Below are positions 2,899-8,664 of a stretch of 64,000 nucleotides of DNA, in pieces. The notes beneath the pieces were generated by a model. The model saw only the letters and a program-made list of their open reading frames with translations. It was not told where the DNA came from and did not search any database. Each line of letters begins with the position of its first letter. Positions within the stretch are counted from its first letter, which is position 1. Origin of the DNA: Gammaproteobacteria bacterium (GTDB lineage Bacteria > Pseudomonadota > Gammaproteobacteria > SZUA-152). Made by a program: the position numbers and the translations under genes. Location of the stretch: assembly GCA_013152545.1 (NCBI GenBank), contig JAADGF010000099.1:9906-73905 (forward strand), written 5' to 3'.

Positions 2899-3339
2899 CG
2901 ATGACCTCATTTAAACAGGTGGCGATATCAGTAAGTTCACGTTGCAAGTAGCCACTGAATCAATCAATTAGTTTTATTTTATTGAACACGACATAGGCTA
3001 TTCCACCCGGCAACGCAAAAACCAAATTTGATAAAATAAGAATCTGCAAGCACCCACGACAAATCCTAGCAAACCGTCGGCGATGATCACGATATCGGCA
3101 ACAGGGTCCCGCTAGATCAAAAACCAGGCAACGCTATCGGTGAAAATAGCGACAAAAAGCAACAACGTTAACGTGCATTGAAAGCAGTGATCACCTTAAC
3201 CCAGCTTTTTCGTATATTGCGCCAACATGGCAACCAACTCCAGATGCCAAAAACTCTCTAAAAACAGTTCCAGGCATTGCAACAGTACCAGCCGATGTCC
3301 ATGACATCTATTAGGCGATCGTTTTTCCTTTTGAGCACA

Positions 3340-4530
3340 TCAAAACGCTACTTCCACTTGTAATGTCACCAAGCTATCATCGTCAGCGCTTGCCGGACCA
3401 CTCACATCCCAGTATTCAACAAACCCGCGAGCATTTTCAGCAAAATAATAGGCGACTTGGAGAGTGATTTCGTCGTAGTCATCCTGACCGTTATTCTTTT
3501 CGTAACGATCCAGACGCAACAGCGGAACAAAAGTTGGACGGCCATCCTCTATAAATGTATAGCGAGCCTCGACATAGGTGGCGTTGTTGTCCTCTTCAGC
3601 CGTTGCTGTGCTGTTGTCATCCGAAGCTTTTAACAGCGCCCCCATCAAGCGAATATTGCCAATATCCGCTTGAGCATCAACACCGGTACGGCTAAAATCA
3701 CGGTCCACAGTACAATTCGTGTTTGTCGCTTTGCAAGTGCCGCTGATCGTCATCAATCCAATCATGATCTCCGGCGTAACATCCATTGCTAAACGGCCGG
3801 TAAGTGCGTCGCTGTCTTCACCTTCCGCATCGCCCTTAACACCGCTAATACCGACGCTGTAGAAGAACTTCTCAGCCGGCCGGCCGTAGAGCGTGATGTT
3901 TTGCCGCGCATCGCGCAATCGACCATCAGCATCCGCTCCGCCAAACCGTTGATTAATCACCGAGGCGCGGTTGCGGGTCAATTTACGGCCATTACTGTAA
4001 ACATCATAGGGGTCACTGCCCGTAATGGCTCCCCAAGAAACTTGCAGATTAACCGCTTCGCTTGGGTGATAACCGAGCGCGGCAGACACCACTTCAACGT
4101 TAAAACCCGCATCATCCTCAGCCTCCAATTCAAACCAGCCTGAAAAATTATTAGCCATTGCCCCGGCAACCATGACTTCCACTTCGTGGAGCGCGCGTAG
4201 TTTTTTGTCGCCACTATCTTTTTTTTCATAGGGTCGCCCCTTAATCATCGCGGTTACCGGCAACGTTTGATCCCAGTTCATAAATCCCGGCGTTTCATCC
4301 CTGGAGAGACGATAACCATTCTCTTTGAACGTGCGTCCCGCAGTGTTCAAAGCAGGCCAGGCACTGTGGCAACTACTGCATTCGGTCTGGTGTTTTCGAG
4401 CAAAGGCAGGAATTGCCTGTGCAGTGCTGATAAACAGTATTCCAACAATCAGCATGGACAGGGATATCAAAACGATGCCTGGCCGTTTTGATACGCTAAC
4501 GGATAGTTTATTGCGGTATACGACTTTCAT
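3340..4530 (-). CDS. Cyc2-like fused monoheme cytochrome c / outer-membrane beta-barrel protein (putative)
   Basis: N-terminal signal sequence, then a single CSSCH heme-binding motif followed by WPALNTAGRTFKENGY. About 350 aa of strand-like alternating sequence ends in the C-terminal ...LQVEVAF (aromatic terminus typical of OM barrels). It lies 11 nt downstream of a cytochrome c gene. Confidence 0.5.
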   Translation of the reverse strand: MKVVYRNKLSVSVSKRPGIVLISLSMLIVGILFISTAQAIPAFARKHQTECSSCHSAWPALNTAGRTFKENGYRLSRDETPGFMNWDQTLPVTAMIKGRPYEKKDSGDKKLRALHEVEVMVAGAMANNFSGWFELEAEDDAGFNVEVVSAALGYHPSEAVNLQVSWGAITGSDPYDVYSNGRKLTRNRASVINQRFGGADADGRLRDARQNITLYGRPAEKFFYSVGISGVKGDAEGEDSDALTGRLAMDVTPEIMIGLMTISGTCKATNTNCTVDRDFSRTGVDAQADIGNIRLMGALLKASDDNSTATAEEDNNATYVEARYTFIEDGRPTFVPLLRLDRYEKNNGQDDYDEITLQVAYYFAENARGFVEYWDVSGPASADDDSLVTLQVEVAF

Positions 4531-4541
4531 CCTTAACTCTC

Positions 4542-4847
4542 CTATTGGTTCGCTAACAAATAATCGACCAGCGCATCGATCTCCGCGCGAGTCAGCTTTC
4601 CTTCATAACCCGGCATAGAGTTTTTACCCTTGATGATGGCTTGACGCAGGGTTTCCTCGCCGTTGCTCATGGTGTTAACCGCCGGCCCTAATTTCTTTTT
4701 ATCAATGGCGTGACATAGAGAACATTTTTGTTTGAAAAGCGATTGTGCATCCGGTATTTCAGCGTCATCCGCAGTAACCCCGGATGGCGCGGTGCTAAAG
4801 AATAGCGCGATGAAGAGTAGCGCATTACGGTTTTTTATCATGCTCAT
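4542..4847 (-). CDS. Class I monoheme cytochrome c (c551/c552-like), periplasmic
   Basis: Signal peptide MSMIKNRNALLFIALFF; CSLCH heme motif; a distal Met in NSMPGY. The start is taken at ATG 4847 (AAGGA RBS). The track ORF extends to 4877. Confidence 0.8.
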   Translation of the reverse strand: MSMIKNRNALLFIALFFSTAPSGVTADDAEIPDAQSLFKQKCSLCHAIDKKKLGPAVNTMSNGEETLRQAIIKGKNSMPGYEGKLTRAEIDALVDYLLANQ

Positions 4848-4912
4848 TTCATTTTTTCCTTTTTTAACCAGATTCAAAATCCTCGCAGCCGAACCGCCTG
4901 ATCAACTCACTT

Positions 4913-5850
4913 GATCGCCAGTTCATAGGCAGCGGAACGCATATCAATCCGCCGTTCCTGCGTCAGACTGCGCACAGCGTCATAGGTAAGGAAGAGCCGA
5001 CTTTCCAAACGACCCAGGACCGTCCCTCAATCCCACGGAAATTGCTGAAGATTTTGCACCCATTCATAATAAGAAGCTAACACACCACCCACATTGGCCA
5101 ACAGATCTGGCACAATAACGATGCCCCGCAGCTGCAACGGTTCATCCGCGCGGTGAATGACCGGCATATTGGCGGCCTCCACAATCAACCCTTGCTCGCC
5201 AGCGTGATGGCGGCATGGGAACCAACATTGCCAAAACCCTGAATCACCACCCGGCTCTGCTCCGGAACGAGTGACATCTCAGCCGCCGCCTTGTGAGCCA
5301 GGAGAGCAACACCGTAGCCTGTCGCCTCAAGCCGCGCCCCAGCTCCATCGGCTTACCAGTGACAATGGTCGTTCTGAAAACCGTGAGTTTTGCTGTGCTC
5401 GTCCAGCATCCACGCCATCACCTGCGGATTAGTGCCAATATCAGGTGCAGGAATGTCATCATGCACGCCAATGATCGGCGCCATCTTCTGGCAGAAACGT
5501 TTGGAAAGCTCTTCCAGGTCATCAACTGTGCCAACGCCCGGACCTCTCCCATATTGACATCCGAGTGAAAGCACAACCTGCCCTTTGAATGGTCCGCAGG
5601 CATGATTGTGTTGCACACGGTAACCCTGGAAGGTGCGCAGAGTATTCCCACCGTTGTAGCGTAAGGTCACTGGCACAGTCACTCGTGTCTCGCGAAACGC
5701 GGAACACGGAAAGCAACAATTTTCCCGTTGCGCATCCTTCAATTTGAGGCGATCAAACGCTCGTTCGAGAAAGTGACACTGAGTTTCCTGGAAAATGCAT
5801 TTCTTATCGGTCACGGCTTCTCCCCTTTCTATCACCACATTCACACACTT
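4913..5850 (-). pseudogene. Decayed NAD(P)-glutamate dehydrogenase (Glu/Leu/Phe/Val dehydrogenase family) pseudogene with frameshifts and internal deletions
   Basis: Frame 1 gives GYRVQHNHACGPFKG...EELSKRFCQKMAPIIGVHDDIPAPDIGTNPQVMAWMLDE (GDH N-domain, but it lacks the GGGKGG segment). Another frame gives [42 protein letters not shown], and a third gives the C-terminal ...RIDMRSAAYELAIK. Total length is about 930 nt against about 1250 expected. Confidence 0.75.
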
Positions 5851-7193
5851 TTTCGTTATTATCTTTTTTGTAAAAATCGTCCCGCCGCAATGGTGTGGCC
5901 AACGACTGATACGCGGGAGCGGTCAACACCTGATAAACGTTGGTGCTGCCCTCATCGAAAAAGTGGGCGCAGCCCGCCATGTAAAGGCGCCATACCCGAT
6001 AGGTGGCTTCGCCCACCATCGCAACCGCCTGTTCGCGATGCATCTCCAGTGCCCGTACCCAATGACGCAGGGTCAAAGTGTAGTGGTGGCGCAATCCTTC
6101 CACGTCGATGATTTCAAAACCGGCCTGCTCCATAGCATTCTCCACATCGCTAATACGCGCCAACTCACCGTCCGGGAAGACATAACGATTCATGAAGCGA
6201 GTGACCGGTGTATCCTGCCAACCGGTATCATTGGTAATACCGTGATTGAGAAACAGCCCACCTGGTTTGAGTATCCGCTTGACGATGCCGAAATAGAGCG
6301 GGAAGTTGGCCACCCCGATATGCTCGAACATGCCCACGCTGACGACCCGATCATAGCGGGGATCGACAGGAAGACTACGATAATCACGCAGTTCAATACG
6401 AACCCGCTCTGCCAGCCCCTCACTGCGTACCCGTTCGATAGCATAACGATATTGCTGCTCACTCAAGGTAATACCGTACACCTGCACACGATAATGGCGA
6501 GCAGCCCAAATGGCCAGGGCACCCCAGCCACAACCGATGTCGAGCAATTGCTGGCCCGGCTCCAAGCACAATTTGCGACAAATGTGATCCAGTTTATCCT
6601 GCTGGGCATTGGCCAATGCTTGGCTGGGATCGCGAAAATAGGCACAGGAATAAACCATCTCGGGGTCCAACCACAGACGGTAAAAATCGTTACTGACATC
6701 GTAGTGGTGGGCAATGCTCTGTTTGGTATTATGGTGCTGCACGGCTTTCCCATCACGAACAGCAGGTGGGGCTGATATCCGGGAACCCGACGTTCGCTGC
6801 CTTGGCAATCGCAATGCCCGCCGCAGCAACCACCACTTGTCCCACCAGGAGAAATGCAGTTGGCGTGCATGCTGCGTCAGGTCAAACAGCGTTTCTATCT
6901 CACCCTCTATACCCAGGTCTCCGGCCAGGTAAGACTCTGCAAAGTGAACCAAATCCCGATGCAACACCAGATGACGCAAATACCAAGGGCTGGCGAAAAA
7001 CCACAATGCAGGGGGCGTCGGCCTCACCGTGAACGCACTCACCGTTCCACAAACGCGCCGCAACCGGTCCATCATAGCCGCTCAGGAGGCGTTCCATAAT
7101 CTCCCGTCCGGCGACGGTCGCTACATCGCCCAAGGTATTATCCCGGCCAATGATTGACGGACGTTGCGCAAATTCTTTAGATTTGATTTTCAT
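5804..7193 (-). CDS. cfa: Cyclopropane-fatty-acyl-phospholipid synthase (Cfa); apparent +/-1 frameshift near 7012-7016 (G5 run), so possibly a pseudogene or a sequencing error
   Basis: The 423-aa ORF aligns to E. coli Cfa from the ...ESYLAGDLG region onwards (DIGCGWG SAM motif, VSVGMFEHIG). The N-terminal approximately 55 aa (MKIKSKEFAQRPSIIGRDN..., GGAG RBS, ATG 7193) are in a different frame (track ORF 6900..7319). The frames switch at a GGGGG homopolymer. Confidence 0.7.
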
Positions 7194-7732
7194 ACCCTTA
7201 CTCCCTACAGCTTTCTCTCTCCATATGCCACCAAAAATCCAACAACCGGATCTTTGAATAAAACATGGCGTCATATTCCCAGAGTCGGAAAAAGTACTCT
7301 CTGTAAAAAACACCAACACACGACGAAGATTAATAGCCTCATAAGTGATGCCCCTCTACTGATTATCACTGAATATTCAACGACAATGAGAATGAAGGAA
7401 CACTCAGATATGCCCATGACATTATTCATCACCTTGTTTTACGGCGAAGCACCACAAAGTTGTAGATTAGCACCCAGATCAGAGCAAAGTACCCGCCATA
7501 GCCGTAGGCCTCAATCAATCCTAGGGAAAAAAATTTCCAACTCAGCCACTCAAAACCCGGCAACAGTTGTTGCCAGATTCCATACATCGCATGTTCGGGC
7601 AATATCACCAAGTGTAAACCCTAGGCGCAACACACAAGTCAACCAGTTATTCTAATCACAAACAGTATCGTAAAATAAATTTTCGCAGGATATCTTCCAT
7701 TAAGATTTTAAGTAAAACGTCAAATTGATCCA

Positions 7733-7761
7733 CCGCAGTAGAAAAAATCTTTCTACTGCGG
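7733..7761. other. Perfect 12-bp-stem inverted repeat (CCGCAGTAGAAA-aaatc-TTTCTACTGCGG)
   Basis: Seen directly in the sequence. No adjacent T-run, so it is not a canonical intrinsic terminator. It sits in a ~1-kb region without convincing ORFs. Confidence 0.5.
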
Positions 7762-8664
7762 TAGATTCTCGGTGTTGTGATCGCATAAGGCCTCTGTCTT
7801 GGTGGCTATTGTGTTTCGCCATCTATACCGACCATCTTTGGCCCTATTTTTTCAATGAATATTTTTATACTTGACTGACTTTATTAGCTTTTTTTGTCGT
7901 TACAAAACACTGCACTCAAAGCATTTTCCAATTGGTTCTGGAATGGCGGAGGCTGCGTGTAAAACCCTAATAAAGCAGCGTTTGTGTCGTTCGGGAATGA
8001 GATGGAAAGATAAAAGATTGAAAGACGATGTTGAAGTTTACGCTCATTAGTATTAACGAAAGAGAAGTGGAAACAATTCTGGGATCGCATCGACCAATAT
8101 GGAACACCTTGGGTTTAGGATGGATACATTATTAGTAAGGCAGCACTCATTGTCAACGGACCCTAGCGGTTTGAGACAATGAAATAATGCCTTCAAAAAT
8201 GCCAACAATGATCCAATGTGGCTGCCAGCCATAATGTTTGCATCATATTGGGATGTAATACGGACTGCCGAGAAAGTCTGTTAATTGCGGATGTGCATGG
8301 GAAACTTGATATCCATTTCCACAGATATGGATCTGTAAAGAAATAAGTTGGACAGATTGCGCCCCGGATATCGTTTCGTCTTCAAGGTTTCCGCCATCCA
8401 TGGCTCACGCCCCTTACCGACTTCCATATAGGCAAAGCGCGGAAATGGGCTCATCCCAAGGGCACTTCTTTCAGGGCGCATACTCGTTGCCTGTAACCTT
8501 TTGCGCAATGCCGAAAACACAAGGATAGACTAGCAAAATGTTCAAATTATTTCTTTACAGAGCTTATTGTGCGCATACTCCTTACGCACTACTACAAATT
8601 GACTTACGTAGAAACTATTTACGATTACCGATTACTTCAAACCGTTTGGGCGATACCTAATTTT

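Follow-up and report, generated by a model that had tools for sequence, protein, structure and literature searches.

A fused cytochrome-porin, very probably of the Cyc2 family, and its partner cytochrome c as a candidate outer-membrane electron conduit in an eroded gammaproteobacterial locus

The stretch of DNA analysed here comprises 64,000 nucleotides of contig JAADGF010000099.1 (assembly GCA_013152545.1, positions 9,906 to 73,905 of the forward strand) from a metagenome-assembled genome (MAG) of a gammaproteobacterium, and the whole of it is referred to in the following as the window. On its minus strand lie two adjacent genes, one for a small cytochrome c and, directly downstream, one for a protein of 396 amino acids in which a single c-type haem motif precedes a porin-like domain. 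A preliminary description, made from the letters of the window alone, had proposed that the two form a Cyc2-like cytochrome-porin pair, i.e. a candidate outer-membrane electron conduit. Where microbial iron oxidation or electron uptake is inferred from metagenomic data, Cyc2 serves as the main marker gene, and its divergent clusters are acknowledged to be functionally unverified. The features of the pair, with the evidence for each in brackets, are the following.

3340..4530, stop codon included, minus strand: gene for a fused monohaem cytochrome-porin of 396 amino acids, very probably of the Cyc2 family (open reading frame, homologues, structure model, ratio of non-synonymous to synonymous substitution rates, dN/dS)
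4414..4530, minus strand: predicted signal peptide, residues 1-39, with an AQA cleavage site (read by eye from the sequence)
4258..4413, minus strand: minimal cytochrome domain, residues 40-91, AIPAFARKH-QTE-CSSCH-SAW-PAL (motif match, invariant residues, model)
3343..4257, minus strand: predicted 16-strand beta-barrel porin domain, residues 92-396, with a C-terminal F (DSSP, Foldseek, strand alternation)
4531..4541, minus strand: intergenic spacer of 11 nucleotides (read from the sequence)
4542..4847, minus strand: gene for a monohaem cytochrome c (class I, periplasmic) of 101 amino acids (Pfam, structure relatives, synteny, dN/dS)

The 396-residue protein is identical to NOZ54144.1 (locus tag GXP08_13615), a protein of a MAG labelled 'Gammaproteobacteria bacterium'. 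Its N-terminus reads MKVVYRNKLSVSVSKRPGIVLISLSMLIVGILFISTAQA before and IPAFARKHQTECSSCH after the predicted cleavage site. The signal peptide, as judged by eye, consists of a positively charged n-region, then a hydrophobic core and the AQA site; the AlphaFold2 (AF2) model places a low-confidence helix at residues 17-32, inside this region. The only CSSCH motif occupies residues 51-55 (window 4366-4380) and begins at residue 12 of the predicted mature protein, and the chain ends in LQVEVAF. Thus, the exported protein with one haem motif close to the mature N-terminus and a terminal VAF was described accurately from the start, as was the distance to the cytochrome c gene upstream, which is exactly 11 nucleotides.

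The haem motif is strictly conserved. In a 35-sequence alignment of the family, C51, C54 and H55 are invariant, and so are A39, P41, F43, R45, P59 and L61. Among the full-length proteins in the best 120 homologues, exactly one CXXCH is found in 119/119 and a C-terminal F in 117/119. A motif that varies among orthologues, which the preliminary description had named as a sign against its proposal, was therefore not what the alignment showed. The family is also large: 365 clusters match the protein at E ≤ 1e-3 in a word-indexed search, and a profile of the 35 members, run against 1.84 billion proteins, recovered 4,093 representatives at E ≤ 1e-3, of which 1,403 reached E ≤ 1e-10. Related loci were taken from a set with one genome for each GTDB species, in which 90 stretches were found to encode a relative; 80 of these were kept (L001-L080). 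Compared with L001, L002 and L004, the porin gene shows a dN/dS of 0.05-0.08, and the cytochrome c gene one of 0.13-0.27, both sets of values being rough as dS is near saturation.

In the case of the general porins, the Porin_4 model scored 19.4 bits against the 396-residue protein, below the Pfam cutoff of 27, and no Pfam, NCBIfam or PDB sequence match to it exceeded its threshold. Precomputed Porin_O_P or Porin_4 matches are present in its homologues. With this sub-threshold score and its conserved haem-binding N-terminal domain, the protein shares the fold of the general porins (Porin_4, Porin_O_P), not membership in their family. The weak Porin_4 match would suit a protein that has no redox role at all, i.e. 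an ordinary diffusion porin whose CXXCH is irrelevant, or a decaying relic in a pair that is being lost. The genes flanking the pair, which persist as pseudogenes or remnants, could be read in the same way, and so could the lack of promoter- or terminator-like sites found near it. We consider this very improbable, however: CXXCH and its flanking motif are invariant across the family, both reading frames are intact and under strong purifying selection, ordinary porins have no N-terminal haem domain, and adjacent cytochrome genes are strongly enriched in related loci. The idea that the CXXCH arose by chance in an ordinary porin was likewise discarded, as the motif is invariant and lies within a conserved domain of about 50 residues.

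The predicted structure was modelled with AF2 from the alignment, with a mean predicted local distance difference test score (pLDDT) of 84 and a predicted template modelling score of 0.80. A small helical domain at residues 41-80 (pLDDT 71-86) is followed by a flexible linker and then by 16 beta-strands over residues 92-395, along which hydrophobic and polar faces alternate as expected. Foldseek returned 238 matches against the PDB at E ≤ 1e-3, and the top 50 listed are nearly all 16-strand porins, with OmpT, OmpC, Omp32 and OprP at E values of 1e-10 to 1e-12. The match to OprP 2o4v, which is the template reported for Cyc2 (PMC8406198), had an E value of 1.8e-10. The beta-barrel anticipated in the preliminary description is borne out by this model. 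Compared with OprP/OprO, OmpF, OmpC and Omp32, the protein has the same 16 strands and a long L3-like loop (Foldseek template modelling scores of 0.5-0.6), whereas these porins lack an N-terminal haem domain and share 10-16% sequence identity with it.

Regarding the interior of the barrel, a conserved 39-residue loop (169-207), which connects strands 5 and 6, is similar to the constriction loop L3 known from porins. The lumen-facing side holds ten acidic residues and seven arginines, each at least 90% conserved, and this mixed acidic/arginine lumen differs from the phosphate-selective arginine ladder of OprP. C266 and C273, conserved at 86-89%, share one loop and probably form a disulfide. H115 (97% conserved) was considered as a distal haem ligand; strand alternation puts it on the lipid-facing side of strand 2, and no claim is made for it. 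Also rejected was a periplasmic multi-domain cytochrome, an identity the preliminary description had held against its own proposal, since the protein has one haem motif and a confident 16-strand barrel.

Cyc2 proteins carry, according to Keffer et al. (2021), the signature AXPXFAR[Q/K][T/Y] upstream of a single CXXCH, a PXL whose P is the fourth residue after CXXCH, and a 16-strand OprO/OprP-like porin, and the N-terminal signature is stated to be unique to Cyc2 (PMC8406198). The protein of the window passes the length threshold of at least 365 amino acids, has a predicted signal peptide (by eye) and a single N-terminal CXXCH, and matches both the core AXPXFAR[Q/K] (A39-I-P41-A-F43-A-R45-K46) and the PXL (H55-S-A-W-P59-A-L61). 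At the last motif position it has H47, where the published pattern has T/Y. Among the 120 best homologues, K is followed at this position by Y in 45 cases, by H in 23 and by T in 14, and the strict pattern passes 56 of the 119 close full-length relatives while it rejects 63 of them together with the window protein (K-H; 4390-4416, residues 39-47). As the position is variable in a clade that is otherwise uniform, the deviation seems to reflect a limit of the pattern and not non-membership. Censuses that rely on the published pattern trip on this one variable residue and probably undercount the clade.

An indirect link to Cyc2-like proteins with the canonical motif was provided by tblastn against plasmids, in which the haem domain was found in replicons of Ralstonia, Caballeronia, Paraburkholderia and Methylocystis; Ralstonia and Burkholderia are among the genera rich in Cyc2 homologues (Keffer et al., PMC8406198). 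The gene of Caballeronia sp. SBC1 encodes ...ALPAFARQTGLACVACHVSFPEL... and its product ends in F. This protein was recognised by its motif and its neighbours: the motif is canonical (ALPAFARQT-GLA-CVACH...PEL), with the same spacing from motif to CXXCH as in the window protein, and the gene is flanked by a HiPIP gene and a gene for a dihaem c-type cytochrome, a layout that He et al. found in a Bradyrhizobium Cyc2 cluster (PMC5566968). When the family alignment was compared with the Caballeronia protein by hhalign, a probability of 97.8% was obtained (E 9.4e-13, 258 columns), and the alignment extends well into the barrel. Because of the motif, the fold, the conservation and this link to a protein with the canonical motif, we file the 396-residue protein, with high confidence, in the Cyc2 family. 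It is a new member of an already described family, in lineages from which homologues have already been reported, and the Cyc2 architecture first proposed for it (N-terminal motif, barrel and single haem motif) stands.

It is worth adding that on the Caballeronia plasmid pSBC1_3 (L081 2782-4284) the RefSeq coding sequence for 'cytochrome C' begins at locus position 3076, just past the CXXCH. The annotated product is without signal peptide and haem motif, both of which are present in the longer open reading frame, and the RefSeq start of this gene is probably wrong.

The partner of the porin gene has its longest open reading frame at 4542..4877 on the minus strand, with a TTG start at 4877. The ATG at 4847, which has AAGGA ahead of it, is the more likely start and would give 101 amino acids. 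The haem motif CSLCH lies at 4710-4724, and an axial-Met region (...NSMPGY) is present. The protein matches the Pfam model Cytochrome_CBB3 at E 1.8e-14 and also Cytochrom_C, and no NCBIfam model scored above its cutoff. Its closest solved structures are the soluble carriers c6, c-552 and c-553. Thus, the partner is a monohaem c6/c552-like cytochrome of about 77 mature residues. Its TAG stop codon lies at 4542-4544 and is overlapped by a GGAGAG ribosome-binding site, which suggests that translation of the cytochrome c and porin genes is coupled. A homologous cytochrome c gene directly upstream of the porin gene is found only in the closest clade (L001-L006, L009 and L010).

The closest relatives of the porin, at 68-82% identity, come from MAGs labelled Gammaproteobacteria, Chromatiaceae, Chromatiales and Candidatus Tenderia sp., with 81% identity for the homologue from the Candidatus Tenderia sp. 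MAG. At 40-52% identity follow relatives with gammaproteobacterial and other labels (Acidiferrobacterales, Ectothiorhodospiraceae, Woeseiaceae, Thiotrichales, Emcibacter), as well as relatives from Nitrospirota/Thermodesulfovibrionales and Desulfatiglandales. From the isolate and habitat labels of the related MAGs, the source would be marine or hydrothermal and not an acidophile setting. The preliminary description had placed the gene in a heterotroph, a label that found no support, as none of the 30 other window proteins scanned against Pfam proved to be a marker of autotrophy, sulfur oxidation or respiration. No Zetaproteobacteria or Gallionellaceae are among the 80 loci, for which the scan used clade-specific peptide patterns. 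A possible experimental handle is the cultured marine gammaproteobacterium Colwellia sp. 75C3, whose homologue (L045 5989-7134, NZ_PJAU01000060.1) is 43% identical, has the variant motif AVTSFAKKY...CSSCH...PQL and is without an adjacent cytochrome gene; a 326-amino-acid open reading frame lies upstream of it on the opposite strand.

These lineages largely overlap those in which Cyc2 homologues have been described before. In inactive sulfide chimneys, Meier et al. (2019) observed Cyc2 homologues that belong to hydrothermal Gammaproteobacteria and Nitrospirae; part of them were detected in the metaproteome, and they cluster with the homologue of Ca. Tenderia electrophaga (PMC6850669). Taken together with the latter homologue, Tel_03480, the shared lineages are Ca. 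Tenderia sp., Woeseiaceae, Ectothiorhodospiraceae, Emcibacter and Thermodesulfovibrionales (PMC5371394, PMC6850669). Expression of Tel_03480 was higher at the less favourable cathode potential (PMC5371394), and in the identity table of Keffer et al. Ca. T. electrophaga stands beside Leptospirillum ferrodiazotrophum, at 17-21% identity to other Cyc2 (PMC8406198). The Ca. T. electrophaga protein is absent from the 120 best matches, all of which are at least 45% identical, and its genome is absent from the 80 loci.

A same-strand open reading frame with CXXCH lies within 400 nucleotides of the Cyc2-like gene in 31 of the 52 related loci for which both flanks are available, compared with a background of 11/887 open reading frames more than 1.5 kb away. 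Of the contextual evidence, this adjacency speaks most strongly for a role in electron transfer. Several types of neighbour could be identified: a trihaem cytochrome on the same strand in 13 loci (a subclade of Acidiferrobacterales and Woeseiaceae), a dihaem c4-like cytochrome on the same strand in 11 loci, and a NapC/NirT tetrahaem cytochrome in six (L040, L048, L053, L054, L061 and L079), five of which also have a dihaem gene. The dihaem-bearing distant subclade, at 40-47% identity, also includes L043, L051, L052, L055 and L064, and its cytochrome genes follow the Cyc2-like gene. Dihaem and NapC/NirT genes together would complete a route from the outer membrane through the periplasm to the quinone pool, and the variety of neighbours suggests that the periplasmic acceptor is interchangeable. 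With a partner that differs by subclade (monohaem, dihaem, trihaem or NapC/NirT), the family looks like a modular front end for varied electron chains.

On balance, we lean towards reading the pair as a two-gene outer-membrane electron conduit. In such a conduit, the 396-residue protein would be exported by its signal peptide and would carry one c-type haem on the CSSCH of its domain of about 50 residues. This haem domain would be tethered to the 16-strand barrel, presumably placed in the outer membrane, with conserved acidic and arginine residues in its lumen. By analogy with Cyc2 from Mariprofundus PV-1 and from Acidithiobacillus, the haem at the periplasmic mouth would be reduced by a soluble reductant that comes in through the pore, most likely Fe2+. 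From the haem, the soluble monohaem cytochrome c, co-translated with the porin, would take over the electron and deliver it to inner-membrane acceptors such as a cbb3-type oxidase. Fe(II) oxidation or electron uptake appears to be the most likely function.

The direction of flow can also be read otherwise. In an outward or bidirectional conduit, electrons would move from the periplasmic cytochrome pool to a soluble extracellular acceptor, or either way depending on conditions. Some members of the family adjoin NapC/NirT quinol-dehydrogenase-type cytochromes, which work in both directions, and homologues are found in MAGs of Thermodesulfovibrionales and Desulfatiglandales, which are taken to be anaerobes. 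Because of these homologues in presumed anaerobes, O2-linked iron oxidation would not be a universal role of the family. In addition, He et al. considered that Cyc2 homologues of non-iron-oxidisers may serve other extracellular electron transfer (PMC5566968). We nevertheless regard outward or two-way flow as unlikely, since all characterised members (A. ferrooxidans Cyc2, Cyt572 and Cyc2 PV-1) oxidise Fe(II), and since a single haem in a narrow pore cannot reach solid acceptors, as argued in PMC8406198.

Comparison with known systems helps to place the inward conduit that we favour. The protein resembles Cyc2 PV-1 of Mariprofundus ferrooxydans (Cluster 1, PMC8406198) in its signal peptide, in AXPXFAR[Q/K]x-CXXCH-PXL, in the small cytochrome domain that is joined to an OprO/OprP-like barrel of 16 strands, in its length of about 400 amino acids and in its predicted outer-membrane location. 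It differs in belonging to a separate clade, in having H as its last motif residue and in the pairing of its gene with a monohaem cytochrome c. In Acidithiobacillus ferrooxidans, the rus operon (cyc2-cyc1-cup-coxBACD-rus) likewise has a fused monohaem cytochrome-porin next to the gene of a periplasmic c-type cytochrome, with a presumed hand-over of electrons to this neighbour. In the window, however, the cytochrome gene lies upstream of the porin gene, and rusticyanin, cup and cox genes are missing. The parallel with cyc2-cyc1 drawn in the preliminary description thus holds for the presence of a neighbouring cytochrome c; the monohaem, c6/c552-like partner is no orthologue of the dihaem c4 Cyc1, and what is left is an analogy. 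In the case of MtrAB, MtoAB and PioAB, a beta-barrel and c-type haem also carry electrons across the outer membrane, but these systems combine a 26-strand barrel with a separate decahaem protein and can reach solids, whereas the window encodes one polypeptide with one haem motif and 16 strands, and a monohaem partner.

Around the intact pair, the locus has decayed. Two traces of this, in addition to the features given above, are the following.

4877..5808, minus strand: glutamate dehydrogenase pseudogene (tblastn of the intact L001 and L083 orthologues)
2992..3285, minus strand: what is left of two genes which, in relatives, come after the porin gene (comparison with the intact genes in L001, L003, L005, L008 and L083)

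The glutamate dehydrogenase pseudogene is split over three frames, contains two in-frame stops and has lost about 76 codons together with the GGAKGG region, while intact orthologues of 415-435 amino acids are present in L001, L002, L008, L010 and L083. It ends about 30 nucleotides before the start of the cytochrome c gene, and because of this short gap the pair is probably transcribed from further upstream, with or through the glutamate dehydrogenase gene. On the other side of the pair, about 29 codons are left of a UbiE-type methyltransferase gene (3199-3285), and of an Aq_1264_TM gene the last 64 codons or so remain, with an in-frame stop (2992-3183). Compared with L083, about 1.4 kb has been deleted downstream of the porin gene.

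The locus L083 is a close relative, with a porin 81% and a permease 91% identical to those of the window. On one strand it has, in this order, genes for MerR, a hypothetical protein, a P1B ATPase (with YHS and HMBD), an ICMT-like protein, YHS, DUF5676, glutamate dehydrogenase, cytochrome c, the Cyc2-like protein, a UbiE-type methyltransferase, Aq_1264_TM, an amino-acid permease and POR gamma, alpha and beta. The window retains POR alpha (from base 1), POR gamma and the permease, and it keeps a CFA synthase gene, as in L001. A partial DUF5676 gene lies at 7435-7608, and the C-terminal fragment of an ISKra4-family transposase at 7871-8050 on the plus strand (NCBIfam E 2.5e-13, model positions 367-406 of 422). 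Coding density is low at 7100-8660, where relatives carry the block of MerR, P1B ATPase, ICMT-like and YHS genes, and these four genes are absent from the whole 64-kb window, as are Rfam matches. A recently inserted or foreign locus was rejected, since the order CFA synthase, glutamate dehydrogenase, cytochrome c, Cyc2-like ... POR is one that the window shares with L001 and L083. Altogether, the gene order is ancestral, and the pair was preserved while its surroundings eroded. The decayed glutamate dehydrogenase gene had been recognised correctly in the preliminary description, and the remodelled locus suspected there is right and understated, with genes decayed on both sides.

The membrane protein Aq_1264_TM (PF27139) may be an inner-membrane cytochrome; it has about 255 amino acids, four predicted transmembrane helices and one CXXCH in the loop after the first helix. 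Intact copies are found at L001 8073-8840, L003 8037-8819 and L083 11159-11935. Identity is 65-87% among the 120 best of 791 matches, which are sometimes mislabelled 'elongation factor-1 alpha'. The MAG from which the window derives holds an intact copy on another contig (GXP08_02400).

Several points weigh against an iron-oxidising conduit and have to be set beside the evidence in its favour. The gene for this possible downstream partner, the membrane cytochrome, persists in the window only as a remnant, and near the pair neither a sigma-70-like promoter on the coding strand nor an intrinsic terminator was found. A conserved Met or second His that could act as sixth ligand is missing from the haem domain. 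The homologues in Thermodesulfovibrionales and Desulfatiglandales MAGs belong here as well. A survey of Tenderiales found Cyc2 in only four genomes, with a role that is at most auxiliary. Full-length identities between Cyc2 clusters are only 15-23%, and the function of the divergent clusters is regarded as uncertain (Keffer et al., PMC8406198). Finally, the recurring neighbours in the nearest subclade are heavy-metal homeostasis genes, not respiratory genes.

This last point was described quantitatively. A phmmer search placed one or more of P1B ATPase, MerR, YHS, SHOCT, DUF302 and CopD within 5 kb of the Cyc2-like gene in 26/80 loci, and at least two in 17; this association is neighbourhood evidence, partly due to shared ancestry or co-transfer and without a proper genomic background. 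In ten loci, among them those of Thermodesulfovibrionales, Nitrospirota and an alphaproteobacterium, P1B (CPx) ATPases lie no more than 4 kb from the Cyc2-like gene. Most of the loci with markers encode a protein at least 46% identical to that of the window, and the loci span four phyla or classes, i.e. Gammaproteobacteria, Alphaproteobacteria, Nitrospirota and Desulfobacterota. A literature search found no paper that links Cyc2 homologues to heavy-metal islands.

Such neighbourhoods, as seen in L083 and in the Thermodesulfovibrionales and gammaproteobacterial loci given below, raise the possibility of a metal-stress module, as opposed to an energy-conserving conduit, in which toxic Cu(I) or Fe(II) is oxidised at the outer membrane, with the electrons discharged into the periplasmic cytochrome pool. 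We hold this to be a minority reading, possible but rather doubtful. Its role would resemble, if it applied at all, what the multicopper oxidases CueO and PcoA do in the periplasm, a likeness we offer tentatively. The many conserved acidic residues of the lumen would suit a cation, and the marker counts point the same way. Against this, the evidence is an association of neighbours that partly goes back to shared ancestry or co-transfer, the window has lost the island and its pair stays intact, action on copper has been shown for no Cyc2 homologue, and distant family members adjoin respiratory-type cytochromes (c4-like, NapC/NirT). For the subclade as a whole, it could be imagined, with equally little confidence, that the protein is the outer-membrane redox arm of copper-type homeostasis islands rather than primarily a respiratory iron oxidase. 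Controlled by a MerR-type regulator, the haem-porin and the small cytochrome c might then oxidise Cu(I) or Fe(II) on the cell surface, a scheme we think improbable enough to be held loosely. It is likewise a speculative step, less probable than not, that the module moves between phyla with the P1B ATPase, YHS, SHOCT and DUF302 genes. The metal-island context is nevertheless a testable alternative to the label 'iron oxidase'.

Three metal islands were annotated gene by gene as examples.

L083 2325-7379: MerR, P1B ATPase and YHS neighbourhood of the Cyc2-like gene (gene annotation)
L085 1-7914: annotated metal-island example (gene annotation)
L086 1-10243: annotated metal-island example (gene annotation)

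In the case of the Thermodesulfovibrionales locus, the genes are those for DUF302, P1B ATPase, cytochrome c, the Cyc2-like protein, SHOCT and YHS. The gammaproteobacterial locus has genes for an RND pump, cytochrome c, MerR, SHOCT, a second cytochrome c, a YncE-like protein, the Cyc2-like protein, DUF302 and CopD.

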